A stretch of DNA of 57,571 bases, the filler included, from Nemertoderma westbladi (lineage: Eukaryota; Animalia; Xenacoelomorpha): the NCBI GenBank assembly GCA_032718475.1. It is 2 parts of 2 records of this genome, joined end to end, with 100 filler letters (N's around TTAATTAATTAA, not from the genome) between each part and the next. Parts side by side here need not be neighbours in the genome. Positions count along the whole stretch, not along the records: positions 1 to 30,749 come from JAUCBJ010000584.1; 1 more part is not named here. The stretch is one strand, 5' to 3'. Below the pieces are notes generated by a model. It saw nothing but the letters and a program-made list of their open reading frames with translations, ran no database searches and was not told where the DNA came from. Positions 18,188-56,225 of this stretch are shown here, piece after piece. The position numbers were made by a program, and so were the translations under genes. The stretch's first letter is position 1. Every line of letters starts with the position of its first letter.

Positions 18188-19565
18188 TGTGACGGGATCA
18201 GGGGATCCCGACCGGTTTACTTTTGTTACGCGTCACCGTGTCGTTCGGAAAAAGATAATAGTTTGTTGTTGATGTTGACATAAACGGTAATATAATGAAC
18301 TAAATGTGACAGCACAGTTGTCCAGAATAATTGAATAGTGATATAGGGTATAATTGCTGAATAGGATACCGGTAACGGTGGTGACGGTACAAAAATGTCA
18401 CTGGTCCCCACTGTGTGACTGAGATAACTGAAAGGGGCACAAACATTAACCGGTAATATATATTCACCTCTACTTTACTGTGGCCTTGCTACCTAGCGGA
18501 TGCTTTCCCTTGTCCCTGATTGGCCAATAACCTAATTCTCGACTCCCACCTCTGTGGGAGTGTCCCCCCCCCCCCCCCCCCCCCCCGCTGCTGCTACTTT
18601 CCCTCTCCAAGAGGTTTGACCTCTAACCTCCTATCCTCCTTTGTGTGTGTGGCTCTTTGGGGCAGTGTTTTGTCCCCGTTATTGGGGGTGATACGAGGTT
18701 GATCGTGATTAACCTCGTATTCCCCAATATTGCTTAAAACGCCACTTCCCAACTTTATGGGGTTGGTGAGGCGGAATTGAATCCGCTCACACTCCCCCCC
18801 ATGCTATCTTCCCGGTGAGAAGATAGCATCTCCTACGAGTGCGCTTCAATTCCGCTGGAACCCGATCTATTATCGGGTGTGGGGTGGAGATCTCTTACTC
18901 GGAGCCGGCTTTCCAGGCCGCTCCCTCTGGGTATGATATTACTACCCTCTCTTGGTGCAACTTCACCTATGTTGCACCAAGACATATGGCATCTCGGTTC
19001 GAGACAATTGTGGATTTCTCTCACACAATTTTATCTCCACTCTACTCTCTCCACTCTAACTCCACTCTGACTGACTCTAACTTCTCCACTCTCACCCTAA
19101 TTCTCCTCTACTTCTCTTCTACTTTCACTCTAACTTTCGGACCCCCTTGTCCCTCACTCTACCTCTTACTCCCCCCCCCCCCCCCCCCCACATTTGAATT
19201 GCACTCGCCTCCTCTCCACGCCTCAGCACCATCTCTTACTAACTTCCCTGTGTTCTATACTCAACCCTTATCTACTTTAGCTCATTCACTCCTGACGAGC
19301 CTCACCCTCCCCTTCCGTGCCGTCGCACTCAAGAAGTGTAAGTCGTCTAGTGTCTCGTCCTGTCATAGTCAATTGGTCCCCAGTCCCAGTAGCTAATTGG
19401 AAAAAAGGTTACATGACTATAGTACTTACTTTGATTATATTGGCTATATGATTATATTCTATTCAAATGATTACTACATACATACATACTAATTGCACTT
19501 TTAATTAAATTTGCACTTAGGAGTTCGTATTACTTCACATGTGGTGCCTTCCAGGCATCCCCACA
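18188..19565 (-). repeat. 3' LTR of BEL/Pao copy 1 (~1.38 kb)
   Basis: TGTG...CACA termini, abutting the PPT. About the first 600 bp are homologous to 51325-51920, starting at the same TGTGACGGGATC. Confidence 0.85.
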
Positions 19566-19576
19566 TCCCCCCCTCC
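19566..19576 (-). promoter_or_regulatory. Polypurine tract
   Basis: The minus strand reads GGAGGGGGGGA immediately before the TGTG start of the LTR. Confidence 0.85.
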
Positions 19577-19581
19577 AAGTT

Positions 19582-22245
19582 CTAGTTCGCTCCTCCCGTC
19601 TTTGGGAACCATCTCAATTCCTTCCCTCTGTCGTCCTCCTCTCTCGGTCGCTTCCTGGTCGTCGCCGCTCCCTTGTTCTTGTCCCCTTTAAGGTTCCTGA
19701 TCCTTGCCGTCACTTCCCTACTGATTCCCGTCGTCGACTCCTTGGGCGCTGGTGTTATTAGCTCCCGGTATCGCTTCAAGGGTGGCTCCTCCGAATGGCC
19801 CTGCTGCTTCCCACTAGTGGCGTCCCATAGGATCACTTTCATGGCCCGCTGCACATGCTCCGCCAAGAAATCTCTGAACTCTCCCCGGTTCTCTGGCGTC
19901 CACCTGTCTAAATACCTCTGTGTATTTATCACTCCGGCATACGATGCCGCCGTTGACACTTCCTGATAAGTAGATGGAAGTCTCCGTTTGATGATTTCCA
20001 GGTGGGCCTCCTGGTTAATATTAAAGAAGCCCCACCGGAACTCGTGGGCCTTCATCCGCTGCCGCGTCATGGCGCCGACATCGGCCCACTCCTCGAAGAT
20101 CTTAAACTTCTCCTCGTCGTCCATCCAGTCGCACTGGCGTCCGTAGTGCCCCCGGAAGTTGCACTTAGAACACCAGTTGTGCAACCGTGGACACGCCCCC
20201 ATCCTATGACTCGACTCGCGACAGTAGAGACAACTCGTCCCCTTCTGGAATCGGTACAAGCAGCTCCTTTCCTGGTGAGTCTGCCTCCCGCAGTAATCGC
20301 AGCCGAGTACCAATGCCTCCCGCCCCACGTCGTCTTTCGTCCCAAGCGATCTCCTCGGTCTATGGAGTCGCTGGTAAGCGAACTTCTGGACGTTAGCATC
20401 CCTGTCCATGTCTATCTCCTCGTCTCGCCTGGGCATCGTCTCTCCGAATACTACCCGTGGTGCTGTTCCCGGTTTCTCGCCCAACCTGATGGTGCTCCCC
20501 GCGAAATCCATCGCCGGCTCCTCATGCACCCAGGCCCACTTGCCGTGTCTATCCCAAAAGGCCCTTGCCCCGCAGGCCGTCACCACTCTCCCGCCAACCC
20601 AGTCCGTGTCCGAGTGGCTGATTCTCCCGATGGGCGGCATCTCTCCAAACTCGTCGTCATCCTCGTCCTCCTCTGGGAGTGGCTCCAAGCCCGGTATCCC
20701 AGTGGATCCACTGTGTCCCTTCCCACCTTGGCTTTCGCCCGTGACTCTCCATTGTTCCAGCTCCCCTGGCCTTCTCATCGCGGAATCGCCCTATGGGCAT
20801 CGTCTGCAATCCCGATGTCGACTGTTTTGGTGATCCTTCCACCCACCCCAATTCTCGCCCTAGAGACTCGCCCGAACTCCCTGATGTCCAGTGTAGATCA
20901 TCTAAGGCCGCCTGTTCCTCGAACCCATAGCCCTCTCCTCTAGCTTCTGCCTCCCTTTCTTCTGCCTCCCTCCTTTCTCATCTAGCGATTTCTTCCAATC
21001 GCTTCGCCTCTTGTCTATCCGCCTCTAGCTGCTCCCACCTCTGATATGGCGTATCCACCTCCCTGTCTACTAGATATCGACAGTTATAATACACCGACTC
21101 GCCCTTCAGCCCCGGGTGGTCTACCAGACCCTCGAAAGCCACTTTGAAGGCTCTTCTGTAGTTCAGCAGGGGTGATCCCGATAGCAGAAATGCCGTTGGT
21201 TCTCTCTCGATAACCACAGTGATGAATAGGTTTAGCAAACCTATCATTATCCAGTCCTCCTGCAGGATATATCGCTTCTGATATATCTTTATCGCTCCTC
21301 TCCGGAATTGATACACCTATTGTTTCCCCGGCCTCGCTCCCCACTTCAGTGAGTTCGCCAACTCCGCTCCGTAGTCCTCCCTGAATTTACCCCAGTCCAT
21401 TGGTTTGTGGCATACGAGCCCCATTAGCTGGCCCATCGCCACCGCTCCACAATGGCCCGTGTTCTCTACTAGGCCCAACCCGTCTGGCGCTGTCATAGCC
21501 ATGTAGACCGTTTGCGTGTCCAGGAGGTTGGAGATCTCCGGACTGATGATCCTCTCCGCATTGTCGCGGATCGCCGATCCCACCTTTATCGTCGACTTCT
21601 CTCTTACTAGGCTCTGCACTGCCCTTTGCAACTGGTTTAACTTCGGCCCATTCTTCTTCCCATACGTTCCCAGATCAAACAGGAATATATCCCCATTTGG
21701 CACGGCCAAATGCAGGAGTATGGTTCTGGCCGATCCCGCCGACCCTCTTCTCAAACCCTCCTCATCTTCCACGGTCCCCTCATCGTCTAGGACCATGTAT
21801 CCTCCCCTGCTGACGGACTCTACAAACCTCTTCCAATCCTTCTTCAGTGGTTCCCTCGGATATTTCGGTATCCCGAACTTCAACTCGTCTCCCTTTACCA
21901 CGTAGTGGAAATGCTCGAAGATCGCATTGTCTAGCGACGGTGTCCCGTAGGTCCCGACCAGCCGCTGCTCGTGCACCTCCCTGAAATGGTCCTGCAGCGC
22001 TCGCGCCTTGTGACCCTTCTCCAACCGCTCGTAGTATCCCCTCGTCTTCTCTTCTGGATGCCTTTCGGTGAAATCCACCAGTATCTCCGTTCCTCCCAAC
22101 TCCGCCTTTCTCTTTCTAACAAGTTTCTCCGCCATTTCGAACTCTCCCGATCGCTCACCTATAAGGTGGGGCCTTGCCAAGGCACAATATAAGTGAGTGA
22201 TGTAGTTCGGATGGTCTGTACGGTCCGATAATGGCCTATCTCTCT
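19582..22245 (-). pseudogene. Accessory ORF (~890 aa reconstructed): DEDDy 3'-5' exonuclease-like domain, acidic linker, three CCHC zinc knuckles
   Basis: Pieces 21317-22180, 20978-21316 and 19582-20778 join into one frame by comparison with copy 2, which has GAG and CGA where this copy has TAG and TGA. Exonuclease-like motifs: MVLDDEG, LLHLAVPNGDIFLFDL, IKVGSAIRD(N/D), NLLDTQ, RYILQED. Knuckles: CDYCGRQTHQERSC, CLYCRESSHRMGAC, CSKCNFRGHYGRQC. Confidence 0.8.
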
Positions 22246-22549
22246 CTGAAGTGCTAGGTTATTGCCTAATTTTCCTACTTTTATTTTCTAAAGTGCCAAA
22301 TTTCCTAAATTCCCTAATTTTGTCGGTTACTTTAATTATGTTCTAGAATATCCTGCCTACTGTTACCATAATTTGTTTAATTTTGATTTTAATACTTATT
22401 TTAATCCTACAACTGTGGTATCAGTATCTATTAATGGATTTATTCTTTAATCCATATTCTGGCCTATTCTACGGGCTGTGCATTACAGTAGTATGTCTCG
22501 TGTGGCCTACATGTTCTGTCCTGCCGTACCCACGTGCCCCCCTCTCACT

Positions 22550-23240
22550 ACCCACTACTAACTCTACTAACTTTTACTAACACACTGACTCTTACTAACA
22601 TTCTAACTAACTTCTACTAACTCTTACTATGTACCCTCTTACTAACTCTTCTACTAACGGTACTACACGTACCCTCTTACTAACTCTTCTACTAATGGTA
22701 CTACACGTACCCTCTTACTAACTCTTCTACTAACAGTACTATGTACCCTCTTACTAACTAACTCCACTAACTCTTACTAATGGTACTACGTACCCTCTTA
22801 CTAACTAACTCCACTAACTCTTACTAACGGTACTACGTACCCTCTTACTAACTAACTCCACTGACTCTTACTAATGGTACTACGTACCCTCTTACTAACT
22901 AACTCCACTAACTAACGGTACTATGTACCCTCTTACTACTCTTACTAACTAACGGTACTACGTACCCTCTTACTACTCTTACTAACTCTCTAACTAACGG
23001 TACTACGTACCCTCTTACTAACTAACTCCACTAACTAACGGTACTACGTACCCTCTTACTACTCATACTGACTTTATAACTAACGGTACTACGTACCCTC
23101 TTACTAACTAACTCCACTAACTAATGGTACTACGTACCCTCTTACTACTCATACTACCTTTCTAACTAACGGTACTACGTACCCTCTTACTACTCTTACT
23201 AACCTCTATCTGCCTACTTACTTACTGTGTACCTACTATG
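22550..23240. repeat. Internal hairpin tandem array between pol and the accessory ORF (copy 1)
   Basis: More than a dozen units of core GGTACTACGTACCCTCTTACT separated by variable ACTAAC-rich linkers. Homologous to 48570-49290. Confidence 0.92.
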
Positions 23241-23373
23241 TACTATTACTTTCCTTTCTCTTACTCTCTTTCTCTATTATTATTTTTATTATTTTATTTT
23301 TTATATTTTGTGTGGGAAGGGGGTCTCGCCCTCAATCCCACCCCCCTCAGTCCAACATTTGGACGACTAAACT

Positions 23374-26300
23374 CTATGGTGCCCCTTCTAGCAGGCAACA
23401 CTTTCCTACAGCCCTCCTGTAGGTCTTCCTATCTTTCGCTCCTATCTTACCCCCTATCCGCACTTCCACAGATCGGACCCTTCCGTCCTCGTCGGAGTAA
23501 GTGTCCACGACTCTTGTTAACCTCCACTGATTGTTGATAATGGTGTCTTCCGTGACGATCACCAAATCACCCTTCTTTAACTCCCTAGTGGTATTTCTCC
23601 ACTTGCTCCTCCTATGAAGTGTGGGTAGGTATTCCTCAACCCACCTCCTCCAGTACTATGCGCTTATTGCCTTAGCGACTTTCCAACTCTGTCGGGAGTG
23701 TATGTCATCTGGGTCTACACCCCGCATGTCGATGGTCGCCGGCCTCTCCATTAGAAAGTGACTGGGTATCAGCACATCTAGTGATTCTGGGTCGTCATTT
23801 TCTGGATATAGCGGTCTGCTATTAATGGTACCCTCGCACTTAGCTAGCACCGTCCTTAATACATCTTCTGTCACCATGTGGGTGTTCATCAACTTCGTCA
23901 TCAGACGCCTGGAACTACCCACGAGTCTCTCGACGCATCCTAAAGTATGCGGAGCATATGGCGTCCTCCTCTCCCACTTCACCTGTCGTCTCCTCATGGC
24001 TGCCCTGACTTCCTCTCCTTCCAGGATGTCCAAGGACTCTGCCAGCTCGTTCTCCACCCCCACAAAGTTGGTTCCATTATTGGAGTATATCACTGCAATC
24101 GTCCCACCTTTGCAGTCTCTGAACCTAGGGCATTGATGAATGCCGATGCGGTTGCGTCTTGGGCAAGTTCTATTCCTACTGCCCGCGTGTTGTTACATAC
24201 AAAGATAATGCCGTAGCGCTTCTCCATGTGCCGCATCACCCTGATCTTTATCGGCCCAAACATATCTACACCGCAGTGCGTGAATTGCGGATCGTGCTGT
24301 CTCACCCTGCTGGCCGGTAATGGCGCCATCTCCTGTACGGCCCGCTCCTTTCTCATCCGTCGGCAGGTCTGGCACTGCCCCACTACCGCCTTCACCTTCT
24401 TTCTTAGTTGTGTGACCCAGAAGGTCCTCCGTATCTCCATGAGGGTCTGGTTGGTGCCCCCGTGCAATATCGACTTTTGGGAGTCCCAAATGATCTGGTG
24501 GACTATCGGCGATCTATTTGGGATGATAATGGGTTTCGGTGGGATGATGAGGCTGTTGTTACTTAGCACTCTAGAGTTCATTACTAGGATCCCATCGTCA
24601 CTGAGTTGTGGCGACAGCGTGATGAGTTCGCTGTCCTGACGAAGATGTTGTTGTTTACTGACACGCTCCACTTCGTCGCCGTAGTACCTTTTCTGTTCGT
24701 AGCGAATCACGGCCCTGGCCGCTCCCTCCAGATCGATTTTTGGTTTCCTCTTGGCGTCCTTGCCAATTCCCTTGAGGAAATCCCCGAAGGCTCTCCAGTA
24801 CGCCACCAACTTCTTGGTCTTGTACCAACTTGAGCTGTAGCTGAGGAGTTTATCCGTCGGGTTATCGCATGTTTCTTCTGACTTTGGTTGCATCTCCCTG
24901 ATCTCCCTCGCCATTTGACTATATATCTCTTCACCTTCTGAGTCTCCTCCCTCTTCTTCCAGTGTTACTTCCTCTAAGCCTGGGTCCACCTTCTTCATCG
25001 GTGGCCAGGCCGTCCTATCATTCAGGAACTGTGGCCCGTGTTGCCACAATACTTCCTTCTTCAAGAAAGTGTGGCGTGCCACGCCCCTCGATAACAGGTC
25101 CGCTGGGTTCTCGTCAGTTGGGCAGTAGTGCCACCTTTCCAACTCAGTTGTCGCTCTTATTTCATCCACCCTATTTGCGACGAATATAGGGTATCTCGTT
25201 TTCTCATTGTGTAACCAACCAAGCACTACCATGGAGTCCGTCCAGTAGTGTGTTTCCACTATGTTGGGAATAGTATCCATCAAGTAGGCTGTGGCCCCAC
25301 TCCTAACCTCGCAGCTGTCAACTCGAGTTTCGGGGCCGATGCTGAATCTGGCGGCGTCGACTTTGCTTTGCTGAATGCAAGTCTGGGCTTATGAGCCCCC
25401 TCTCGTTGTACTAGGTAGAGTGCCACTCCGTATGCTTCCAATGATGCATCGGAGAACATGTGTAGATCCAGATCCGTCATGTCACCATCCGGGAAATACA
25501 CGCATGGCATGCTGTATGTCCCTATCTGTTCTAAACTCTCTGTCCACTTGCTCCATCGCTTGCTGATCTCTTCCGGGACCTTTGTATCCCACTCGTCCTT
25601 TAGCTTATATACTTTCTTAAGTATCTGCTTCGCCGTGACTAATAGTGGGGATGCTAGGCCTAGGGGATCGTATATCCTTGCTATGTACGATACATAGCCC
25701 CTCTTTGTGTGGATGTCTGCGCCCTTCTGGCTCAGCTGGTACTTGAACTCGTCTGTCTTTCAGTTCCACACGATCCATAATGCCTTCTGCTGGGACTCTA
25801 CCCTCTTGTTCGCCATGTCCTGTCCCTTGGCTGTCGTGGGATTATCCATGGTCGACTCTGGCCTCCTGTCCTCTATGGCTTTCATAAACTCTTCTGAGCT
25901 GGATTGGAACTTGGTCAGGTTAAACCCGGATCTCTTCAGGATGTCGCGAACCTCACGCCCTGTATCCAGTAGTTCTTTAACCGTGTTTCCAGACTTCATT
26001 CCGTCGTCTACATAGAAGCCACGTCGAATCATATCGACGGCTTTGGCGCTATATTTCTCCTCTTTCCCCTCTACTGTATCTCTTACAGCCACAGTCGTCG
26101 TAAATGAGGACGACTTGGCTCCCATATTCTGCACCACCATCTTGTACATCAGTATTGTCGATGGTTCCTCGTCGCCGTTGTACCATAGGAAGCGCTGGCT
26201 GTCACTATCCTCCTCCGTCACACGGACTTGGTTAAACATGCCTTCAATGTCACAGGTGAAGGCGTGCCTCCAGTTTCTGAATCTCAGTAGGACCTCGATT

Positions 26301-26720
26301 CCTGAGTTATAAATATTGGGACCCTCCAGCAGATAATCATTTAGGCACTTGCCGTTGGTCTTAGCCGACCCGTCAACTACCATCCGCAGTTTACCTTTCT
26401 TTGGGTCTAGAGCCACGTGAAGTGGCAGGTAATAGGTCCTATCCGTGTTCGGTTCGTCGACCAGTAACTCCACGGCCCATCCTTTCTCGACATACTTTCT
26501 TATCGTTTTATGAATGTACTCATTCTTTTCGGGGCTCCATTTTAGCGTTTGCTTCAATTTACGAAGCCTCGTGAGTACCATTCCCTTGTTGTCTGGTAGC
26601 GGTAATTTTGGTTGTTCCCATACCATTCCTATGGTGTACCGCCCCTCGTCGCATCTCATCGACTCCTTTACACTTTGTATCGCCTGTTTATCCTCTACCG
26701 AGGTTCCGACCCCGGTCTCT
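23374..26720 (-). pseudogene. pol: BEL/Pao pol (RT, RNase H, integrase), disrupted
   Basis: RT at 25760-26659 (YYLPLH, LRMVVDGS, CLND, DIEGMFNQV, FYVDD). RNase H at about 25000-25510. Integrase at 23374-24550 (H..H..CQTC zinc-binding region, CGVDMFGP, S(N/D)NGTNFVG, C-terminal QWRLTRVVDTY). Confidence 0.93.
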
Positions 26721-26721
26721 T

Positions 26722-29700
26722 TTAATCCCTCAAAATCCTGCCTGAGTAGTCTCCTGAGCTGTTCCTCCGCTCCTCATCTTCCATCTCCATCATAGTTCCC
26801 GCGAACATGCACCCTGATGTCTCCGACATCCTAAATGGAATCTTGGTTCTAATTGGGCCGCTTAGCGTCCACCCGAATGGTGTTAAAATTGCCACTGTGT
26901 CACACTGTTTGTCTTCGCCGAAGACTGTCTGCATTCTCTCCTGGGCCGTCGGGCAGTCCATTCCTACTATAATGGATACCTTCCTAACATCCACCCCTGG
27001 TATTGAGAAATCGATACTGTCCAGGAATCTATTTTGTTCGACCTCGATGTTGGTTGGTCGCCTGGCGTTGATATTTATCGATTCTATCACCTGGATGGGG
27101 TCGATCATCGCCCCATAATCGCATCCCGGTGCTATCGCTGCTATCCCGCACCATCCAGTCCTCATCTCCAGGACCTCATCTTTGCTGGAGATGGTTGTTA
27201 CCGCCATTCTACTTGGCCTCGTCTTCAATCCTATCTCTTCGGCCACCCAATTCTCGACCAATGTGAAGGCTGCTCCACTGTCGACCAGCATCAGCGTGGT
27301 TACTGATTGATCGCCTTCTCCGATCACCCTCACTGGTACTACCCCGAGTAGTACCGTTCCTCTCTTCTTCGCCCCTACGGTGCTTGTCACCATTGTCTGT
27401 CCTTTGCCTTGACTGAACTTAATTGGTGTTTCTTTGCATTGGTTAGCTCTATGTCCACCCATCACACATCGAGGACAGACATCGCTCCTCCTCGCGTATT
27501 CTATCTGATCTTCTCTGGGCAGTGCTTGCCAATATCTGCAGTTCATGGTCTGATGAAGTACGTTCGTGTGTAATTGGCATTTATTGTTTGGGTTATAGCC
27601 GTCCTTATACAGTGCGCTGCGTAGCGCACTTGCGTTCATACCTAGATCCCTACTATTCTTATTGTTTGGTTTCGGCCTACTGGGCATGTTGGGGTTATGT
27701 TTGTTTGTGTTGTTATTTTTCCCCTGTCCGCTCCATGGTGTGGCCCTACCCCCGGCTACATGTGGACTAGTAGTCCCCTGCGTCGCCGCGTATGGCAGCG
27801 ATTGTCTGAGCTTTGGCAATGCGTTCACCGTGTTATGTTCTGGTTTTGGCCTGTTGTATTCGGTCTTTGGCCCCTTTCCCAGACTATCCTCGCTATAGAC
27901 TGGGTCTGTAATCAATTTGGCTTCGTAGTTGAGGAAGCTCGACATTTCCTCTAGGCCCGGTTCCGCACCCTTCTTCTCCCTGGTGGAGAAAGCGAATTTT
28001 CTCCATTTATTGTGCAGCCAGATTGGCAGTGCCTGCGCTATCGTGGTGATGTTAATAGATGCGTTGAGTTCGTATGGCGCGTCTAGCGTCTTCAACACGA
28101 TTAGCGCCTTCTCGACTTTGTTCGCAAATGTCTTTATGCTAATGGGGTTATCCTGTAGGCCACCCGATGTTATACCTCTCAGGGTCTGCCGGATGATCTT
28201 GGCCGGGTGCCCGTACTCCCTGTCTAGCGCCCGCCATGCTGTCGTGAAGCCACCCTCGATGCCCTGGTACTGCAACACGATGTTATACGCTGGGCCTCCT
28301 GTATATACCTGTAGATATTTTAGGCACTCTGCCTGCGTCAGGTTCTTAGTCAATATCTCATTGCTGTACATGCGCCGAAATTGCAGTTTAATCGCAATTT
28401 AAATGGTTCTACAGGTGGTAACTCGATTCTGGTCTTCAGTGCATCGATTAATGTAGCCATTCCCATCGCCTGTGCTTCCAATGGGTTCGATGGATGCTGT
28501 ACAGATTCTCCCATTGGGTGCGGTCCACCCATCCTGTCTGTTGCCCTCCTTTGCATCGGATATATCATTGGGGGTAACGGCCCCCTCCATATTTCCGTGT
28601 CGCAGGCTCTGTTCTCGTCCAGTGGGTTCGATGTTCTTATTCCTGTTTGAGTATATTGTTGATATTGTGATGGGGGAATGTCACCCTGCCCCCCCCCCCC
28701 CCCCCCACCGGTATATTTGGTACTGGGGTTGATGTTAATATATTGGGGCCCATACACCTATCCGCAATAACTCTCCCCTCCCCTGGATATATGTTATGCC
28801 CCTGCATGCTATAGTCATACTGTTGTGCTGGTACCGGTATAGGCCTATCCACTTCTGGCCTACCTACAGGTATGTACTCCGCGACTTCCGGGATTAATCC
28901 CGTCGTCCGCGCTGCCCTATCGTCTACATTATATCTCCCAGCATGGCCTATAGTATGTGCAGTAAGGCCTACAGTATGTCCTGCAGTCTGTATGTGTCCC
29001 TCCGGACCGAAGTTTAACCTTCTCGAATAATCCAAGAAGTCCTCCCCGCGGCTACGGTATCCTCGATCGGCAGCTACATCCCGTCGGGAAGTTTCTCTTC
29101 GATCCCCTCTCCTATTCTCGTCCTCGTACCGGTACGCCCTGTACCCCTCTCTCGGCGTATAGTACACCTCGACAGGTCGCGTCTCTCCGGGACGATGGCA
29201 ATCTCCCGGAGTTCGACCCCAATGACTCTCCAACTCCATCTCTACTACCGACAGCTCGCTATCCGTCCTCGCTCTCCTGTAGCTCGCAACGATACTTCCT
29301 CTACTCTCTTCTCTTCTTCTCTCTGCAGTGTAGCATCCCTGCTCGCGAGATCTCTCGTCGACCTCCCGGTTAAACTCCACTGTTCTTCTTCCCTCTTCTG
29401 ACTGGGCTCGACGTCTCGTAGCTAATGTATTGTTATTACCCCCCCCCCCCCCCCCCCCCCCCCCGCCCGTACGGTTACACCAGTCTTGGGTCTGTCGTCC
29501 GGTCCCTGTAAGTGGGGTATTAGCAAACGTTTCCATAACTTCTGGCTCCTCGTAAACACTACCCGAGCCAGCCTCACTCTCTGATAGCCCCAACTGTGCC
29601 AGTTCCAATCGGCGCTTCTGTTTGGCCTGACATTGCATAAGCCCCCTCAAACCGGGCGTGCATATCATCCCGCACACGCTTTCCCGTTCTCTCTCTCTCC

Positions 29701-30749
29701 CTATCCTCTCGCAAACTCTGCTCAACCAGCTCTGCCTCTCTCGCAATCCTCTCAAGCCGCCTCGTCTCGCGCTCCTTATGCTCGCTCGCCCCTCTAGCCT
29801 CACGCTCTTTGCATTCACTCGCCTCTTTCGCCTCTCTCGCCGCCTTACGCTCCTTTTGTTCATTCGCCTCTTTTGCCTCTCTCGCCTCTCGCATCGCCTC
29901 ACGCTCTTTACGCTCGTTCGCCTCTTTCGCCTCTCTCGCCTCTCGCTCCGCCTCATGCTCTTTACGCTCGTTCGCCTCTTTCGCCTCTCTTGCCTCTCAC
30001 TCCTTTCCTTCCCTTATATCTATCTCCTCACACTCTCTAAAGTTTCTCGCGACCCTCTCAGCCCTCTCTTCATTCTCTCTCGCCAGCTCTCTCTCTCTTT
30101 CTAACAACACAGTTCCCTCTTCCAACTGCCTCTCTAACTCTTTCTGGTCTAGCGCCACCATGTCTAATTGACACGCCAGATCTATTTCTAACACCCTTCT
30201 TGCTTTTGCGGAGGATGTAGCGGACTTGTCGGTCGCGACGGACCCCCGTCGCCTCTCTGTCCTACTAACTTTCCCCCGCTTTCTGGGGTTCTCGCTAACC
30301 GACGAGACCGAATCCTCGGGGTTAATCTCGGATTCGCCCTCGTGCGGGTCTGCCCAACCCACTAACTTAATTCCCCTAGCATCCACTAACCACAGCCCTA
30401 TGTAAACTACTTGCGGTTCCATTATCCCAGACCGCCACAGTTCAAATAGTTCGGTGGCGACCCCCCTCGCTCTCTCACTGGCTAGTTCTCCCTGTCCGAA
30501 GCGAACTAGGTATCTAAAGTGTTTATTCGACTGACCTAGTCGCTGGTTCAACTTCCTTTGGTCTAACTTTTCTCCCTCTCTGGCCTCCCTGAGCTGTTTC
30601 TTCGTCGTTCGTCGCATTGTAGGCTCGTCGGAGCTGGTCACTGGTTCCGACTTCCTCGTCGCCGACCTCTCCTCCTCCCCTCCTGGTTCGGCGTCGTACC
30701 GGCGGCCCCACCGTCGCCGTTCCGGCGGGCCGTCCGTCGCCCTCGGCCT
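26722..30749 (-). pseudogene. gag: BEL/Pao gag plus aspartic protease, frameshifted
   Basis: Charged coiled-coil N-terminus, gag core (IELPPVEPF, CLKYLQVYTGGPA, LDREYGHP), Cys/His knuckles CQLH..H..C and CPRC..GH..C, protease LVDSGA, and AILTPFGWTLSGP. Confidence 0.88.
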
Positions 30750-30849
30750 NNNNNNNNNNNNNNNNNNNNNNNNNNNNNNNNNNNNNNNNNNNNTTAATTA
30801 ATTAANNNNNNNNNNNNNNNNNNNNNNNNNNNNNNNNNNNNNNNNNNNN
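30750..30849. other. Assembly gap with artificial linker
   Basis: 44 N, then TTAATTAATTAA (stops in all six frames), then 44 N; 100 bp in total. Confidence 0.95.
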
Positions 30850-32011
30850 CAGGACAGTCTCCTGCATCTGCCCGAGCAGGATATCCATCCCCCGCCGTCT
30901 CTCGTCCACCCATTCGACCGCCGAAGCGGGAGTCCGCCAACGTCGTAGCGGGCGGACGAGGGACAACGGGCGACAAATTTGGAATATTTCGCTCGGGGTC
31001 CAGGACCTGAACTGTCTCTTGGGCAGTTCTACGGGGCACAGGTAGCTTAGTGCTATGCAGAGGGAATTTAGAAGCAGTTTCAGGGAGCACAGGTGTATCT
31101 ATCACCGAAGGGGTGATTTCAAGAACAGGCCTAATTATTTCAGGCTCATCTACTATAGTAGGGAGTCTTTCTATTTTAATTATTTGGTCTGTGGGCTCTG
31201 TACTACCTAAGTTGGTGTTATTTAGTTGCCTTCTAACAGCTGGAGGCAAATCAGGCAATTTCTGACGGTGGAATGTTCTTTTACGTCTGCTTAGACGAGA
31301 TCTATTTCCTTTGCCTTCAGTATCGGTGGTATCGCCTTCTTCAGATGATGTATACCCCTGTCTTTTGGGAGTAGATCGCCTCATCATCTGCATATTACTA
31401 GCTGTTAACTGTTTATTGAAGTTGTCTTGCCTCTCTTGAAGATTTTCCAACTCTAGTTGGGTTGCCTCTTCAGATGCCCTCCGTTCTGCTTCTGCCACTG
31501 CTGTTTTTCTTTCGGCTTCTGCCGCTGCCACTGCTGCTGCCGCTTTCCTTTCCGCTTCGGCCTCTGCCACTGCCACTGCTGCTGCCGCTTTCCTTTCCGC
31601 TTCGGCCTCTGCCACTGCTGCCTTTCTTTCCGCTTCTGCCTCTGCCACTGCTGCTGCTGCCTTTCTTTCCGCTTCTGCCTCTGCCACTGCTGCTGCCACT
31701 GCCTTTCTATCTTCTATACGTTTTTTCTTTAATTGTTCTTCTTGGTCTCTAGCGATGCGGAGTTGTTCATCGAATTTAGCTTGGTTCGCCGCTAACCTAT
31801 CCACATCAATTGCATCCAACACACGCTGGGCTCCTTCACTATTAGGGCTAAGCCCATCTAGTCTTCTCCGCAACTCTTCATCACCTACGAAACGCTGATA
31901 GTCTGACAGATAGATGTCAATGGCATCCCTCTTATGCGGTTTCTCTGCTGTCACTTCGCTCTCGGTTGTATCTAGTAGACTGTCTGACAGGTTCTGCTTT
32001 GCGTCAGACAT
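30850..32011 (-). CDS. N-terminal part (>385 aa) of an unassigned ORF, probably gag/ORF1 of a different LTR element; truncated by the gap
   Basis: ATG at 32011, open to the gap. Coiled-coil with AEAEAERKAAAAV repeats and a Pro-rich region. No diagnostic domain. Not homologous to the BEL gag N-terminus at 49962-51269. Confidence 0.55.
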
Positions 32012-33387
32012 GCTTATGTATACCGTTGAATGTCTACTGCTGTATTACAGTCTGAGTAAGTCTAGTAACTCAGTATTACCTGCTAGCCTAGTAATTAATT
32101 ACCGGTACTGCTACTCAGTGTAGCGTGATATATATAATATATTAGAATACCGGTATACTTATAGTATATATAACTATATAAGTATTATTACAGACTAGGT
32201 TTATCACAGAATACCGGTATAATTTTAGCACAAATATATATAAATATATAATAGGCCTATCGGAATACCGGTATACAGCTTACAGTTTGTAGGATATATA
32301 ATTCTGAAATAGAATTAATTACAAGTACCGGTATAATTTCAGCCTAGATTTATAGAAATAAAGATAATAGGCCTATCGTAAATACCGGTATATCAATTAT
32401 TTCAAATAATTGAATTTCTGTTACTTTAGGGTTACTTGGTTACTTTAACTTACTTTATTACCGTTATTTAAGCAGTAGTCCAACTGATATTGAGACCTAA
32501 TTGTTATATGGTAGGCCTACTATTTATAAATCGTTAGATTTGATTTATAATATATATATACCCGTTTTAATGGGTTTTGTCAATGTTTGAAATAAATGTT
32601 ATTATTTCTGGGGGTAATCACTACACAAAGCGGTGCGCTTTCAATGAAGTGTTACGTATGAGACACTAAAACAAATAATACTAATTTACCTAAGTTACTT
32701 AATACTACAAATTACGTACAATTCGGGTGAGATTACAATCTCTAAATAAACACAAAAATTTACAAAAACACAAAATACGAATTTTTAGGGTAATTTTACA
32801 AGAAGTCTACAAACCAGCCTAACAAAGGGTTAGAAAACTGGTTATTACAACGGACAGGGTACTACGGTATTTGAAATAATAAGTAGTAGTAAATACACTG
32901 CGTTGTCTAGATAGGAAAATACCACCGCCTGACGACCTATAGCCGTATCGCTATAGGTTCTACGTTATGTATCACGGAGTGTTCCTACCTAGAAGTTAAT
33001 AGAGCTAATCGAATGTGCCTATCAACCACTTTACAACACAAATATAATGCCTACACTAATTACTTTCGGAAAGCACTGTACACTAAACCCTAAATTAGGT
33101 ACGAGTACTTGTACAACAAATAATCAGTAGTTAAATATACTTGAACAGCTAAAAGAACCACGGCATCTGCTGGAGTGACCGATGCACAAAATCACCAGTC
33201 TTTACCTACGCCGAGCAGCCCGTGTAGTACCGAGGTTAATTTAACTATAGCGGTATGTATAACAAACACAATTACTGTAGGAACAAACTTGGGGAATGAA
33301 TGTTGCGGATAATCGCATAAACTCTGAATAATAAATATTACGCTACGCGTACAAACTACTCAAACAAAATACAGACCGAACACTGAC

Positions 33388-33897: not shown

Positions 33898-34284
33898 CGT
33901 CTGTACAATCTGATCAGGCTTACACGCCTTCTGTTCAATACTGGCCTACAAATAAATAAAACTTGACAGAAATAAGTAAAATCTCAATAAAAAATCAGGG
34001 CGGCCGTTCCCTGATTAAGTACTAAGACCTACCGGTATACAACAATCAAATCGAATAATACTAGTGTACTTATACGGAAGTACCGGTTAGGACAGCTAGG
34101 CCTACGGAATACAGAAGTACCGGTTCTAGCGGTTGGGCCTACTGACTACTGACCTACAGATGTACCGGTTCAGGTTTACCGGTTGACCGGTACTTTCAAC
34201 TTTATTGCTTACTGCAACAAAGAAGCTATATCCTTTAATGTTCGCGCTTTCAGACCTTTGGCAGTTTAACCCACCAAATTAAGA

Positions 34285-46056: not shown

Positions 46057-48247
46057 CTGCCATACGCTGCCGTGTCATGGCGCCGACGTCGGCCCACTCC
46101 TCGAAGATCCTAAACTTCTCTTTATCATCCATCCAGTCGCACTGGCGTCTGTAGAGCCCCCGGAAGTTGCACTTGTTGTGCAACCGTGGACACGCCCCCA
46201 TCCTGTGGCTCGACTCGCGGCAGTAGAGACAACTAGTCCCTTTCTGGAATCGGTACAAACAGCTCCTTTCCTGGTGAGTTTGCCTCCCGCAGTAATCACA
46301 GCCGAGCACCAATGTCTCCCGCCCCATGTCGTCTTTCGTCCCAAGCGATCTCCGCGGTCTGTGGAGTCGCTGGTAAGCGAACTTTTCGACGTTAGCGTCC
46401 CTGTCCACATCTATCTCCTCGCCCCTCCCGGGCATCGTCTCTCTGAATACTACCCGTGGTGCCGTTCCCGGTTGCTCGCCCAACCTGATGGTGCTCCCCG
46501 CGAAATCCATCGCCGGCTCCTCATGCACCCAGGCCCGCTTGCCGGGTCTATCCCAGAAGGCTCTCGCCCCACTGGCCGTCACCACCCTCCCGCCAACCCA
46601 GTCCATATCTGAGTGGCCGATCCTCCCGATGGGCGGCATCTCTCCGAACTCGTCATCATCCTTGCCCTCCTCTGGGAGTGGCTCCAATCCCGGTATCCCG
46701 GTGGACCCACTGTGTCCCTTCCCACCTTGGCTCTCGCCTGTGATTCTCCATCCTTCCAGCTCCCCTGGCCTCCTCAGTGTGTAATCGCCCTCGGCGCCCG
46801 CTGGTATGGGCGTCGTCTGCAATCCCGATGTCGACTGTTTCGGTGATCCCACCGTCCACCCTAATTCTCGCCCTAGAGACTCGTCCGAACTTCCTGATGA
46901 TGTCCAACGAAGTTCGTCTAAGGCCTCCTGTTCCTCGAACCCGTAGCTTTCCCTTCTTGCTTCCTCCTCCCTTTCTTCTGCCTCCCTCCTTTCTCGCCTA
47001 GCGATTTCTTCCAATCGCTTCTCCTCTTGTCTATCTGCCTCTAGCTGCTCCCACCTCTGATATGGCGTATCCATCTCCCCGTCTACTAGATGTCGGCAGT
47101 TATAGTATACCGACTCGCCCTTCAGCCCCGGGTGGTCTACCAGACCCTCGAAAGCCGTCTTGAAGGCTCTTCTGTAGTTCAGGGGTGATCCCGATAGCAG
47201 GAATGCTGTTGGTTCTCTCTCAATGAATGAATAGGTTTAGCAAACCCATCATTATCCAGTCCTCCTGCAGGATATATCGCTTCTGATATACCTTTATCGC
47301 TCCTCTCCGGAATTGATACACCTCTTGTTTCCCTGGCCTCGCTCCCCACTTCAGCGAGTTCACTAACTCCGCTCCGTACTCCTCTCTGAACTTACCCCAG
47401 TCCATTGGTTTGTGACACACGAGCCCCATTAGCTGGCCCATCGCCACTGCTCCACAATGGCCTGCGTTCTCCACTAGTCCCAACCCGTCTGGTGCTGTCA
47501 TAGCCATGTAGACCGTCTGCATGTCCAGGAGGTTGGGGGTGTCTGGACCGATGATTCTCTCCGCATCGTCGCGGATCGCCAATCCCACCTTTGTCGTCGA
47601 CTTCTCTCTTACTAGGGTTTGCACCGCCTTTGGCAACCGGTTCAACTTCGGCCCGTTCTTCTTCCCATACGTTCCCAGGTCGAATAGGAAAATGTCCCCA
47701 TTTGGCGTGGCCAAATGTAGGAGTATGGTTCTGGCCGACCCTGCCGACCCTCTTCTCGAACCTTCCTCGTCTTCTACGGTCCCCTCATCGTCTAGGACCA
47801 TGTATCCTCCCCTGCTGACGGACTCTATGAACCTCTTCCAATCCTTTCTCGGTGGCTCCTTTGCGTACTTCGGAATCCCAAACTTCGCCTCGTCTCCCTT
47901 CACGTAGTGGAAATGCTCGAAGATTGCGTTGTCTAGCGACGGTGTCCCGTAGGTCCCGACCAGTCGCTGTTCGTGCATCTCCCTGAAATGGTCCTGCAGC
48001 GCTCGCGCTTTGTGACCCCTCTCTAACCGCTCGTAGTATCCCCTCATCTTTTCTTCTGGATGCCTCTCGGTGAAGTCCACCAGTATCTCCTTTCCTCCTA
48101 ACTCCGCCTTTCTCTTTCGGACAAGTTTCTCCGCCATTTCGAACTCTCCCAATCGCTCACCCGTAAGGTGGTGCCTTGCCAAGGCGCAATACAGATGAGT
48201 GATAAAGTTAGGATGGTCTGTGCAGTTCGATAATGGCCTATCTCTCA
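46057..48247 (-). pseudogene. Accessory exonuclease/zinc-knuckle ORF, copy 2, C-terminally truncated
   Basis: ORFs 47220-48248 and 46043-47074 align end to end with copy 1. They retain MVLDDEG, KVGLAIRDD, NLLDMQ, RYILQED and two intact CCHC knuckles; the third is partly deleted. Confidence 0.8.
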
Positions 48248-48569
48248 CTGAATCTTAGGTTATCGCCTAATTTTCCTACCTAATTTTCTAAAAGTGCCAA
48301 ATTGTACTAAATTTCGTAATTCTGTCCGTTACTTTAATTATGTTCCAGAACATTTCTCCTACTGTTACCATAATTTGTCTAATTTCTAATTTTATTTTAT
48401 TTTAATATTTAATTTAATCCTACTACTGTGCTATCAGTATTCTGCCAATGGATTATTCTATTTTATAATCCACATTCTGGCCTACTCTGTGGGCTTGTGC
48501 AGTACAACAGTATGTGACGCGTGGCCTACACGATTTATCCAGATGTACCCACGTGCCCCCCTCTTGCTA

Positions 48570-49290
48570 CTCACTACTAGCTCTACTAACTTCCTAACTA
48601 ACCTCTACTAACTCTCACTATATTTCATATCATACATACCCTCCTACCACTAACTCTTACTGCTAACGGTACTATACGTACCGTTTTACTAACTTCTCTA
48701 CTAACTCCTACTACCGGTACTACGTACCCTCTTACTAACTTCTAACTCCACTAACTCTTACTAACCGGTACTATGTACCCTCTTACTAACTTCTAACTCC
48801 ACTAACTCTTACTAACCGGTACTACGTACCCTCTTACTAACTTCTAACTCCACTAACTCTTACTAACCGGTACTACGTACCCTCTTACTAACTTCTAACT
48901 CCACCAACTCTTACTAACCGGTACTACGTACCCTCTTACTAACTTCTAACTCCACTAACTCTTACTAACAGGTACTACATACCCTCTTACTAACTTCTAA
49001 CTCCACTAACTCTTACTAACCGGTACTACGTACCCTCTTACTAACTTCTAACTCCACCAACTCTTACTAACCGGTACTACGTACCCTCTTACTAACTTCT
49101 AACTACACTAACTAACGGTACTACATACCCTCTTACTACTTAACTAACTATCTAACTAACGGTACTATGTACCCTCTTACTACTTAACTAACTATCTAAC
49201 TAACGGTACTACGTACCCTCTTACTGCTAACTCTTACTAACTTCTATCTGCCTACTTACTTACTACGTACCTACTACATACTATTACTCT
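48570..49290. repeat. Internal hairpin tandem array, copy 2, with a regular 51-bp unit
   Basis: Unit GGTACTACGTACCCTCTTACTAACTTCTAACTCCACTAACTCTTACTAACC, about 7-8 near-perfect copies plus variant flanks. Confidence 0.95.
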
Positions 49291-49337
49291 CTCTTTCTCT
49301 TTCTTTCTTTTTTTTTTTATATTATTTTTATATTATT

Positions 49338-49833
49338 TTATTTTTTTTTATACACGTCCGACACGTTCACATTAATAGCACCACTGATATTGCCATTGGT
49401 TAGATCAATTAAATCCTCTAACTCAATTAAGTTATTTTGTGCGCCCAGATTAGAAACGGAATTATTTTGCTCGTTCGAAATAAGATTATTTGAATTATTT
49501 TGTAAATTCGGATTTAGGTTTAAATTATTCGAATTATTTTGCATATTATTTTGTAAATTCGGATTTAGGTTTAAATTATTCGAATTATTTTGCGTATTAT
49601 TTTGTAAATTCGGATTTAGGTTTAAATTATTTGTATTATTTTGCGTAATTATATTATTTGAATTATTTTGCGTAATTATATTATTTAAATTATTTCCTAC
49701 ATTAATATTAGAATCACTCGGATTTAAATTACTACTGTCGGGCAAAATATTATTTCCTGCAATGAAAGTTTGATTAGAATTATCTAATACGGTTGTATTA
49801 ATATTAACGTTGTCTACTGTATTATTATTATTA
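49338..49833 (-). other. Asn-rich low-complexity open frame with 48-bp repeats, foreign to BEL copy 1
   Basis: NLNLNPNLQNN(T/M)QNNSN repeats. The frame is open back to the poly-G/GGT-AAT junction at about 49835. Confidence 0.55.
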
Positions 49834-51269
49834 CCCCCCCCCCCCCCCCCCCCCCGCCCGTACGGTCACACCAGTCTCTGGTCTGTCGTGCGGTTCCTGT
49901 AAGTGGGGTATTAATAAATGTTTCCACAACCCTTGGCTCCTCGTAAATACTCGAGCCAGCGTCACTCTCTGACAACCCCATCTGCGCCAGTTCCAGCCTG
50001 CGCTTCTGTTTGGTTTGATGAATAAGTGCACATGCACATGCTTTCCCGCTCTCTCTCTGTATCCTCTCGCAAATTCTGTTTCACTAATTCTGTTTCTCTC
50101 GCCACATGCTCCTTACGTTCACTCTGCTCTCTCGCCTCACGCTCCTTACGTTCACTCTGCTCTCTCGCCTCACGCTCCTTACGTTCACTCTGCTCTCTCG
50201 CCTCACGCTCCTTACGTTCATCCTGCTCTCTCGCTTCACGCTCCTTACGTTCATCCTGCTCTCTCGCCTCACGCTCCTTACGTTCATTCTGCTCTCTCGC
50301 CTCACGATCCTCTTGTTCCTTCCTCTCTATTTCCTCGCACTCCCTAAAGCTTTTCACAACCTTCTCCCTATTTTCTCTAACTAGTTCTTTCTCCTTCTCT
50401 AATAGCGCACTCTCTTCCTCTAACTGTCTCTCAAATTCTCTCTGACCTAGCGCCGCCAGATCGAGTTGGCACGCCAGATTTATCGCCATCACCCGTTTTT
50501 CTTTTGCGGAGGATGTAGCAGACTTATCGGTTGTGACGGATTCCCTCCGCCTTCCCGTCCTGCTGACTCTCCCCCGCCTCCCGGAACTCCCTCCGACCGA
50601 CGAGACCGAATCCTCGGGGTTAACCTCGGATTCGCCCTCCTGCGGTCTCCTCCAACCCACTAATTTTACTCCCCGGGCATCGACTAAGTATAGCCCTATG
50701 TACACTACACTAGGCTGCATACCCCTACACTCCCATAGTTCAAACAGTTCGCTGGCAACCCCTCTCGCTCTCTCCTCGGCTAGTTCTCTCTGCCCAAAAC
50801 GCATCAGGTAGTTAAAATGTTCATTCGACTCACCTAGTTGTCTTTTCAACTTGACCTGGTCTATCTTGGCCCCTCCTTTAGTCTCTTTGAGTAGCTTCCG
50901 GGTCGCGTTGTAGGCCCGTCGAAGTCGATCGCTGACCCTGACGTCCTCGTTGCCGACATCTCCTCTATCTCTCCGGGTCCGGCGTCGTACTGGCGGCCCC
51001 ACCGTCGCTGTTCCGGTGGGCCGTCCGTCGCCCTCGGCCTGTGGCTGGCCGGCGACTTCGGCACGTCGACCGCCGTCGTGTGTCAACTTGTCTCTCTTTC
51101 CTCCCGACTCGTCCTCTAGTTGTAGACGGCTCCCCTCGTATTGGATCACCGGGTCACCCATTGGCGATGGGTCCGGCGTCGTGGGTCTATACCGTCGCGC
51201 CGCGGCCTCGCGGATCGTTAGATCGCCGTCCGGGGTCCGCGGCGGTGTCGTCTCTCCTGTTCGGCTCAT
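49834..51269 (-). pseudogene. gag: BEL/Pao gag N-terminus, copy 2, including the start codon
   Basis: 435-aa ORF from ATG 51269, homologous to 29430-30749, with 33-bp EAREQxERKER repeats. Confidence 0.85.
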
Positions 51270-51324
51270 CTTTGTACTTAGTGACTTAGTGACTAGTTTG
51301 TTAGGCAGCAGTTGTTCTAATTAC

Positions 51325-51920
51325 TGTGACGGGATCCACGGAGGATCCCGGTTTATCCGGTTTTGGTTTCTAATCTACGCGTCCCCGCCGTGTGTGAAAG
51401 GTAGAAAGAGTTCTGAGTTATTGATTGATCGGTGTATATAGGTTCGGGATATAATATAATAAAATGATAATAGCACGAATAGTTGATGTTTGATGCAGTG
51501 TACCGGTAAATGATATATCTAATATGCTGACAGGCATGACGGTGACGGTGACGGTAATTAGAGTTCCGCTACCGTCCTAACTAGCTGACTTACTACAAGT
51601 GAAGGAATGATACACGTGACACGGTAATATATTGCACCGGTTGGCCGCATTACACTACTCAGCCGATGCCTTCCCCCCATTGGCTAATAGCTCACTTGTC
51701 ACCTTCCCATCTCCCTGGGTGTGCTTCCCCCCCGCTGCTGTCTCTCTCTCCCTCCCGGAGGTGTAACCTCTGACCCCCGCTGTGTGTGTGTCCTCTTGGG
51801 GCCTGTCGTCCCCGCTTATTGGGGTGACACGAGGTTGATTGGTAACCAACCTTGTGCTCCCAATATTGCTTAAAGCTAACTCTTGTGGGGTGGCTAGCGG
51901 AATTGAATACGCTAACACTC
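51325..51920 (-). repeat. Partial LTR upstream of copy 2 gag; distal (U3) part missing
   Basis: Starts TGTGACGGGATC like 18188 and is homologous to 18188-18795. Fused to integrase sequence at a CTCC microhomology. Confidence 0.85.
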
Positions 51921-54900: not shown

Positions 54901-56225
54901 TTTGCTTTGACCGAACTTGATTGGTGTTTCCTTGCATTGGTTAGCTCTGTGTCCACTCATCACACATCGAGAACAAATTTCATTTCTCCTCGCGTATTCT
55001 ACCTGATCTTCCCTGGGTAGCGCTTGCCAATACCTGGAGTTCATGGTCTGATGAAGTGCATTTGTATGTAATTGGCATTTGTTCTTTGGGTTGTAGCCAT
55101 CCTTATACAGTGCGCTGCATATCGCACTTGCGTTCGTACCAAAGTCCCTACTGTTCTTATTGTTTAGGTTCGGCCTACTGGGCGTGCTGGGGTTATGCTT
55201 ATTCGTGTTGTTATTTTTCCCCTGTCCGCTCCATGATGTGGTCTTACCCCCGGCTACATGTGGACTAGCAGTCCCCTGCGTCGCCGCGTACGGCAGTGAT
55301 TGTCTGAGCTTTGGCAATGTGTTTGCCGCGTTATGTTCTGGTTTCGACCTGTGGTATTCGGTCTTTGGTCCCTTTCCCAGGCTATCCTCGCTATAGACTG
55401 GGTCCGTTATTAGTTCGGCTTCATAGTTTAAGAAGCTCGACATTTCTTCTAAGCCCGGTTCCGCACCCTTCTTGTCTCGAGTGGAGAAAGCAATCTTCCT
55501 CCACTTGTTGCGCAGCCACATCGGCAGTGCCTGCGCTATCGTGGTGATGTTATTAGACGCGTTGAGTTCGTATGGTGAGTCCAGCGTCTTATCAGCACGA
55601 TTAGCGCCTTCTCAACTTTGTTCGCGAATGTCTTTATGCTAACGGGGTTATCCTGTAGGCCACCCAATGTTATACCTCTCAGGGTCTGCCGGATGATCTT
55701 GGCTGGGTGCCCGTACTCCCTGTCTAGTGCCCACCATGCTGTCGTGAAGCCGCCCTCGATGCCCTGGTATTGCCTCACGATGTCGTATGCTGGGCCTCCT
55801 GTATACACTTGCAGATATTTTAGGCACTCCGCTTGTGTCAAATTCTTCATTAGTATTTCATTACTATACATGCGCCGAAACTGCAGATACTCCTCCGGCC
55901 TACTTCCATCGAATTTAAATGGTTCTACAGGTGGTAACTCGATCCTGGTTTTTAATGCATCGATTAGTGTAGCCATTCCCATCGCTTGTGCTTCCAATGG
56001 GTTCGATGGATGCTGTATAGATTCTCCCGTTGGGTGCGGTCCGTTCGTCCTATCTGCTGCCTTTCTTTGACTTGGATATATCATTGGGGGTAGCGGCCCC
56101 CTCCATATTTCGGTGTCGCACGATCTGTTTTCGTCCAAGGGGTTCGATGTTCTTATTCCTATTGGGGTATATTGTTGATATTGTGATGGGGGAATGTCAC
56201 CCTGCCCCCCCCCCCCCCCCCCCCC
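51921..56225 (-). pseudogene. pol: BEL/Pao gag core-protease-RT-RNase H-integrase, copy 2
   Basis: ORFs 55536-56138, 53257-55521 (PR and RT continuous), 52864-53232 and 51938-53044 (SDNGTNFVG). Several hundred bp of RNase H are deleted at about 52920. Confidence 0.92.

Follow-up and report, generated by a model that had tools for sequence, protein, structure and literature searches.

A selection-maintained third gene with a predicted DEDDy exonuclease domain and zinc knuckles in a BEL/Pao retrotransposon of Nemertoderma westbladi

What is the long third gene of a BEL/Pao retrotransposon in the genome of Nemertoderma westbladi, and is it a working part of the element that carries it? The question is raised by a stretch of 57,571 nucleotides from assembly GCA_032718475.1 (hereafter the window), which consists of parts of two records joined by 100 filler letters; positions 1 to 30,749 come from JAUCBJ010000584.1. 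A preliminary description of this DNA had placed an open reading frame (ORF) of ~890 codons, which we call ORF3, in the env position of the element, and had read it as a DEDDy 3'-5' exonuclease followed by three zinc knuckles.

A third gene maintained by selection

Our firmest result is that ORF3 was a working, protein-coding part of the element, maintained by selection. The window holds two copies of ORF3 on its minus strand (Table 1). Over the 717 codons that they share, the two proteins are 89% identical, with a synonymous divergence (dS) of 0.30, a nonsynonymous divergence (dN) of 0.051, and a ratio dN/dS of 0.17. That is, the copies are separated by 118.5 synonymous and 82.5 nonsynonymous differences (binomial p ~5e-29). 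Every segment of ORF3 from the first ATG onward is constrained, with dN/dS of 0.12 in the N-terminus, 0.17 in the exonuclease core, 0.20 in the region after the exonuclease, 0.19 in the linker and 0.08 in the knuckles. As controls, the same comparison gives 0.08 for the reverse transcriptase (RT), 0.16 for gag-protease and 0.16 for integrase. Since the ratio in ORF3 resembles those of protease and integrase, and since the breaks in the frame are private to each copy, we conclude that selection has kept the ORF3 protein. The dS of ORF3 is, moreover, close to that of RT (0.34) and of gag-protease (0.31); therefore, ORF3 has travelled with pol.

Neither copy retains the open frame of ~890 codons that had been described. 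Copy 1 is interrupted by in-frame stops at 21319 and 20980 and by a frameshift near 20792, while copy 2 has a frameshift and a truncation, a damaged third knuckle, and ~155 missing 3' codons. Because each break is found in one copy only, ORF3 of the active element is most likely one continuous frame. There is a weak hint that its start is spliced or lies upstream of the first ATG; the 39 codons ahead of that ATG have a dN/dS of 0.32 (p 0.02-0.07), and a TTCAG just before 22245 is kept in both copies, with no pyrimidine tract.

ORF3 is present across many copies of the family, which is multi-copy. Contigs cover ORF3 in four DNA sequencing runs from three studies, with many distinct contigs in three of the four; these runs were found with ORF3 as the query, two of them derive from one sample, and their depth gives no copy number. 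At position 21319, all of the covering contigs (42, 36, 37 and 2 in the four runs) differ from the stop of copy 1.

The element that carries ORF3 is a BEL/Pao (Belpaoviridae) retrotransposon, in agreement with the preliminary description. A Pfam search of the frames upstream of ORF3 gives the order DUF1759, aspartyl protease, RVT_1, PF05380, integrase, and the integrase has 223 homologs, of which the best 120, all BEL/Pao-type polyproteins, show 29-39% identity; 116 of these 120 carry PF05380, and PF01612 is listed for none of them. In translation we find YVDD in RT, DAS in RNase H and a DSG protease, which the accessible text of PMC554778 gives as hallmarks of BEL/Pao pol. The gag protein has one canonical knuckle and one variant Cys-His box, with a third box not evident; Tas likewise is without the triple Cys-His box, according to the same portion of PMC554778.

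Within copy 1 the gene lies where it had been placed, on the strand of gag-pol between integrase and the polypurine tract, its stop standing five bases from that tract; pol ends at ~23374, and a spacer of ~1.1 kb separates it from ORF3. Copy 2 does contain ORF3, as described, but not in that position: there the gene sits behind a piece of long terminal repeat (LTR) and a diverged gag N-terminus. From the start of gag to the end of the LTR the copy-1 element measures >13.8 kb, and no 5' LTR matching copy 1 is found upstream of its gag in the window.

Table 1. Coordinates of ORF3, its predicted domains and the surrounding parts of the element, counted along the window
Feature	Position	Strand	Remarks
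ORF3, copy 1 (broken)	19582..22258	-	same strand as gag-pol; stop codon 19584-19582; first ATG 22135
Predicted exonuclease core, copy 1	21254..21793	-	ExoI VLDDEG 21793-21776; ExoII column 21586-21560 (Asn); ExoIII RYILQED 21274-21254
Three C-X2-C-X4-H-X4-C knuckles, copy 1	20131..20301	-	20301-20260, 20232-20191, 20172-20131
Polypurine tract	19566..19576	-	11 nt; 5 nt 3' of ORF3 stop; abuts LTR
3' LTR, copy 1	18188..19565	-	1378 bp; TGTG start at 19565, CACA end at 18188
Non-coding spacer between pol and ORF3, copy 1	22259..23373	-	tandem-repeat array 22556-23208; also in copy 2
gag C-terminus and pol, copy 1	23374..28398	-	stops and frameshifts; DUF1759, Cys-His boxes, protease, RT (YVDD), RNase H (PF05380), integrase
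Long gag N-terminal region, copy 1	28637..32044	-	assembly gaps at 30750-30849; no Pfam match
ORF3, copy 2	46061..48254	-	exonuclease domain open; frameshift near 47226; two of three knuckles intact; ends early, at 46061
Exonuclease motifs, copy 2	ExoI 47798-47781; ExoII 47591-47565 (Asp); ExoIII 47279-47259	-	
Spacer with tandem array, copy 2	48255..49346	-	
gag N-terminus, more diverged subfamily	49814..51320	-	72% to copy 1; dS 0.65
3' part of related LTR	51325..51926	-	63% to copy-1 LTR; identical 12-nt end
Second gag-pol piece	51918..56225	-	87-90% to copy 1; cut inside integrase, joined to LTR piece

Fold and active site of the predicted exonuclease domain

Read from its N-terminus, ORF3 of copy 1 comprises an N-terminal region, the predicted DEDDy exonuclease, a charged low-complexity linker, three CCHC knuckles, and a C-terminal region with basic motifs. 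It is likely, in our judgement, that the domain has a WRN/RNase D-type DEDDy 3'-5' exonuclease fold, because a language-model match in the ESM Atlas and a test of ordered motifs both point to it. At the top of its ranking the Atlas places WRN-like/PF01612 clusters, which score 0.93 and share 181 of 256 features with the query, and 25 of the 30 matches belong to that family. For the motif test, the reference set consists of 17 bacterial WRN-like exonucleases, and a profile dominated by them matches WRN with an E-value of 1.5e-26. Six ungapped WRN-like blocks occur in order in ORF3, scoring 40.0 bits in copy 2 and 34.1 bits in copy 1; none of 500 shuffles reaches 40.0 bits (mean 7.6, maximum 38.3), and ORF3 ranks at the top of 373 real segments, the next unrelated one scoring 21.8 bits. 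When a WRN-like hidden Markov model (HMM) is run on 276 frames of the window, the copy-2 frame comes first (E 0.059) and the copy-1 frame third (E 1.3).

Structure prediction was carried out with and without guidance. The unguided AlphaFold model, of low confidence (predicted local distance difference test, pLDDT, 32.7), has strands and helices in DnaQ order at residues 97-213, and its Foldseek search returns nothing at E 0.001. A model guided by WRN-like rows rises to pLDDT 61.8 and matches EXD2, WRN, Nibbler and, as its top Foldseek match, the RNase D of Trypanosoma brucei (TbRND); it lies at Z 8.7-10.4 and root-mean-square deviations of 3.2-4.0 from WRN-type folds (Z 10.4 to WRN), values that are circular and speak to compatibility only. 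According to the Atlas features and this circular model, the fold group nearest to ORF3 is formed by WRN exonuclease, EXD2, Nibbler/Mut-7, EXD1 and Egalitarian. ORF3 differs from the WRN group in carrying an insertion of ~36 residues ahead of ExoIII and in its YxxxE motif, and its identity to the bacterial WRN-like proteins is ~20%.

A number of results weigh against this assignment. Shuffled proteins score 0.9 in the Atlas 4-10 times per 100. The spacer ranges of the block test were chosen after the query had been seen, so that its p-value is optimistic, and true members of the WRN-like family score 104-138 in the same test. The exonuclease domain has no match at E up to 10 in Pfam, NCBIfam, PHROG or PDB sequences, and no match to ORF3 emerges from phmmer over 1.84 billion representatives, nor any relative from two word searches. 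The HHalign alignment with the WRN-like set is collinear and not significant (probability 1%, E 0.049, a score reached by 4 of 100 shuffles), and alignments with RNase D/NrnC-like sets are no better than shuffles; those sets, of 27 short proteins and 13 mixed loci, were replaced by the 17 WRN-like proteins.

The motifs themselves follow the order given in the preliminary description, with the exception of 'IKVG..I.DD', which proves to be a blend of IKVGSAIRDN in copy 1 and TKVGLAIRDD in copy 2. DEDDy identity thus stands as likely on the Atlas score of 0.93 and the ordered blocks, while the check proposed for it, a Pfam profile together with AlphaFold and Foldseek in search of a DnaQ fold, comes back empty, as do the other standard profile searches.

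Whether such a domain would cut is a separate question. Both copies agree in the D-x-E of ExoI and in the Tyr and two acidic residues of ExoIII. Set against these, ExoIII reads Y-x3-E-D (YxxxE), with Glu where the catalytic Asp is expected; the ExoII column holds Asn in copy 1 versus Asp in copy 2; and MAFFT pairs the ExoI Glu of the family with a Glu four residues further on. Because of these three departures, the ORF3 enzyme may be weak or dead. On balance, ORF3 of the active element is somewhat more probably catalytic than inert.

The knuckles stand out from the sequence itself. The pattern C-X2-C-X4-H-X4-C occurs seven times in the six frames of the window, five times in the ORF3 copies and twice in gag; the three knuckles that had been described are present in copy 1, and two remain intact in copy 2. 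Against Pfam zf-CCHC_4 the ORF3 knuckles give E 0.013, below the cut-off, and their weak PDB matches are led by retroviral nucleocapsid proteins and TbRND (E 0.02-0.5; TbRND 0.078). The ESM Atlas returns only leads under 0.9 for the knuckle region, and the C-terminal region at 20130-19750 has no PDB match.

Proposed function and its alternatives

An env-like fusion glycoprotein was considered for ORF3 and rejected on hydropathy: the highest 19-residue Kyte-Doolittle mean is 1.59, too low for a clear membrane anchor, and falls inside the ExoIII helix, while the C-terminal part reaches 0.32.

We propose that ORF3 may be an accessory RNA 3'-5' exonuclease of the WRN/RNase D type. The protein would be made from a transcript of its own, arising in the 1.1 kb spacer; its three knuckles would grip single-stranded RNA and feed the 3' end to the active site; and the enzyme would blunt host small-RNA silencing or RNA decay. 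The parts of this proposal differ in strength. A separate ORF3 transcript from the spacer is likely, and by analogy with the RNase D of Trypanosoma, RNA would likely be the substrate rather than DNA. Counter-defence, among the functional options for the target, is a tentative choice and somewhat less likely than not. Taken whole, the accessory-exonuclease reading with host silencing or RNA decay as its most likely target is tentative, having somewhat less than an even chance of being right.

The fold group to which ORF3 is nearest includes the small-RNA factors Nibbler/Mut-7 and EXD1, and the cellular protein TbRND (PDB 7C42) offers a model for the arrangement. As far as the available text of PMC7797062 goes, its CCHC fingers bind RNA and support exonuclease activity. 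ORF3 resembles TbRND in that CCHC knuckles stand in a row behind a DEDD exonuclease, here a predicted one. Unlike TbRND, which per the same text has four knuckles and a linker of 28 residues, ORF3 is borne by an element, is ~850-890 codons long, and has three knuckles ~300 codons away from the predicted exonuclease, a distance that counts against the proposal. The fuller scenario, in which a BEL/Pao lineage, independently of the rotifer elements, captured a TbRND-like exonuclease with its RNA-binding knuckles and now trims piRNAs or siRNAs with it as a counter-defence, is unlikely; in the literature searched we find no demonstrated retrotransposon-encoded small-RNA trimmer that acts as a suppressor.

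How widely such a gene occurs bears on its role. In a partial metagenome scan, 561 BEL/Pao loci were confirmed and the best 80 kept; in 21 of these 80 the sequence extends 2.5 kb or more past integrase. With HMMs built from ORF3 and from the two bacterial exonuclease sets, nothing under E 0.49 appears in 2168 frames of the best 80 of 561 loci, and there is no exonuclease among the 24 scanned of 31 downstream frames (at least 150 codons) at these loci; 9 of the 24 belong to the gag or protease of the next element copy. Similarly, ORF3-like sequence is absent from the best 120 of 223 BEL/Pao polyproteins, and no relatives of ORF3 are found in viral contigs, metagenome contigs or plasmids. These surveys show only that ORF3 appears to be no general BEL/Pao feature; the relatives surveyed are distant and the profiles shallow. 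Since no counterpart of ORF3 turned up in the related BEL/Pao elements, an accessory rather than a core replication role fits, and the gene appears dispensable in these relatives. At one metagenome contig, a BEL/Pao polyprotein is followed downstream by a frame with DUF3504 (PF12012; L193:7879-8985, E 5e-12).

An active exonuclease could instead serve the element's own replication, packaged by way of its nucleocapsid-like knuckles and trimming 3' ends, whether of primer, genomic RNA or complementary DNA. The retroviral nucleocapsid proteins and TbRND among the best, weak, knuckle matches speak for this, as does the 3'-end processing proposed for rotifer ORFs in the available part of Rodriguez et al. 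(PMC5408684). There is also a hint of unusual priming, possibly self-priming: the sequence after the LTR near copy 2 (51324-51316, minus strand) has no TGG start, and its first 9 nt are complementary to 51562-51554 within that LTR, a degree of pairing attained by 14 of 5000 shuffles; the LTR of copy 1 has a different sequence at the homologous place. On the other hand, ORF3 lies outside gag-pol, so that packaging is not ensured, and no such gene is seen at the 21 loci that extend 2.5 kb or more beyond integrase, nor in the best 120 of 223 polyproteins. We regard a role in replication as rather improbable.

The departures in the active site raise a further alternative, in which a weak or dead exonuclease fold serves as an RNA-binding adaptor, in the manner of Egalitarian or EXD1, that moves or shields element RNA. 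The YxxxE form of ExoIII and the ExoII Asn of copy 1 would be expected of such a protein, the long charged linker, knuckles and basic motifs would suit it, and EXD1 and Maelstrom are described as inactive DEDD derivatives that keep RNA binding (PMC5408684). Yet the two copies do not differ in the D-x-E of ExoI or in the Tyr and two acidic residues of ExoIII, copy 2 has the ExoII Asp, and copy 1 is decayed, so that its Asn may be a late lesion. An adaptor of this kind is unlikely.

It is very unlikely that the domain is not DEDDy at all, with ORF3 a conserved nucleic-acid-binding protein of another fold whose motifs match by chance: the blank standard profile searches, the non-significant HHalign result and the shuffles that reach an Atlas score of 0.9 are what such a protein would give, but the Atlas and the ordered blocks are two separate lines that point to the same family, and the low-confidence unguided model has the DnaQ strand and helix order. 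That ORF3 proofreads in trans for the RT, a service that ExoN performs for the RNA polymerase of nidoviruses, is the weakest proposed function and highly improbable, since the gene is separate from pol and is not found in related BEL/Pao elements; the large size of the element (against 4.2-10 kb in the profile of the International Committee on Taxonomy of Viruses, ICTV; PMC8742986) and the proofreading domains within the fold family favour it, while the RNA-binding-type knuckles and the lack of any link to RT do not.

Surroundings and known relatives

The surroundings of copy 2 are rearranged. Along the minus strand we find, in order, the gag-pol piece, the LTR piece, the gag N-terminus, an Asn-rich stretch, the spacer and ORF3; this permuted element (46061-56225) may derive from two copies with deletions, nested or in tandem, or may be an artefact of assembly. 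The Asn-rich stretch is a repeat frame of 175 codons (49338-49865, minus strand) between the gag N-terminus and the spacer of copy-2 ORF3, and has no Pfam match. The junction of integrase and LTR near 51920 shows a short CTCC microhomology. Further contigs span the LTR-to-gag region of the copy-2 element, and thus a short-leader subfamily probably exists.

Upstream of copy-1 gag lies an AT-rich region, 32050-34500, which is probably the long 5' leader of the BEL/Pao element. ACCGGT/CGGTA words, which are also frequent in the spacer arrays of ORF3 and in the LTRs, are numerous in it, and 33323-33897 holds a tandem duplication of 288 bp. No Rfam family is found within 17500-36000. Elsewhere in the window are fragments of the long interspersed nuclear element type (3180-4043, 39633-40991, 44122-44610 and 44696-45691), three frames of which match RVT_1, along with one endonuclease domain; this endonuclease, at 44122, is encoded on the strand opposite to that of the RT at 44696-45691. 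The stretch 56225-56343 matches 44739-44621 at 92%. A frame of 190 codons at 41901-42473 (plus strand) has spaced Cys and Trp residues, no Pfam match at E 0.01, and the look of an immunoglobulin-domain exon.

ORF3 has counterparts in Juno and Vesta, LTR retrotransposons of bdelloid rotifers whose lineages are presumably Ty3/gypsy-type. Malik et al. 2000 may also have noted a domain resembling RNase D in the Cer/Tas elements of nematodes. The available portions of Rodriguez, Kenefick and Arkhipova 2017 (PMC5408684) and of PMC5718144, PMC6431247 and PMC6338049 describe a DEDDy ORF3 in Juno and Vesta, shared with Terminons. Like that gene, ORF3 here is a predicted RNase D-like DEDDy gene downstream of pol, in the env position and without a membrane segment; in both cases the acidic set is non-canonical (DEED in the rotifer proteins) and the role putative. 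The differences, to the extent that these portions cover them, are threefold. The rotifer elements carry a dUTPase and GPY/F integrases and are not BEL/Pao; their ORFs show intragenomic evolution without clear departure from neutrality, in contrast to the dN/dS of 0.17 found here; and their description mentions no triple CCHC knuckle.

Among BEL/Pao elements, Tas, Cer7/Cer13 and Atlas bear env genes (PMC8742986, and PMC9094657 and PMC554778 in their accessible text). According to these sources, our element shares with them the order protease, RT, RNase H, integrase, the YVDD and DAS motifs, DUF1759, PF05380, a polypurine tract of ~10 nt, and an extra coding region before the 3' LTR. Unlike theirs, the third gene here encodes no glycoprotein, and both the LTR of 1378 bp and the total size lie above the ICTV ranges (PMC8742986). 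DnaQ-like 3'-5' exonucleases are also carried by the DNA transposons Dada (DEDDy) and KolobokD (DEDDh), as described in PMC3706591 and PMC9587614; these differ from the present case in being DNA transposons whose nuclease is proposed to act on DNA ends, that of Dada being inserted in the transposase.

The preliminary description had known of no such architecture in BEL/Pao. This holds insofar as we find no published case of a BEL/Pao exonuclease in a literature search that left Repbase, Dfam, GyDB and most subscription papers outside its range; none is mentioned in the ICTV Belpaoviridae profile (PMC8742986), or in the accessible text of PMC3118150, PMC554778, PMC9094657, PMC3985635 and PMC11662393. 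It does not hold for the parts taken separately, since DEDDy ORF3s have been published for rotifer LTR elements and an exonuclease with CCHC knuckles for TbRND.

The predicted exonuclease of this element would thus extend exonuclease cargo in the env position from the rotifer elements to BEL/Pao, and it adds to the rotifer study a gene under purifying selection that equals in strength the selection on protease and integrase. Unrelated transposons, among them LTR elements, Terminons, Dada and KolobokD, have captured DEDD nucleases repeatedly. A high-copy family whose protein joins a predicted exonuclease to knuckles, and whose cellular analogue is structurally understood, would offer a direct route to ask whether transposons bring an RNA-trimming enzyme of their own against host silencing.

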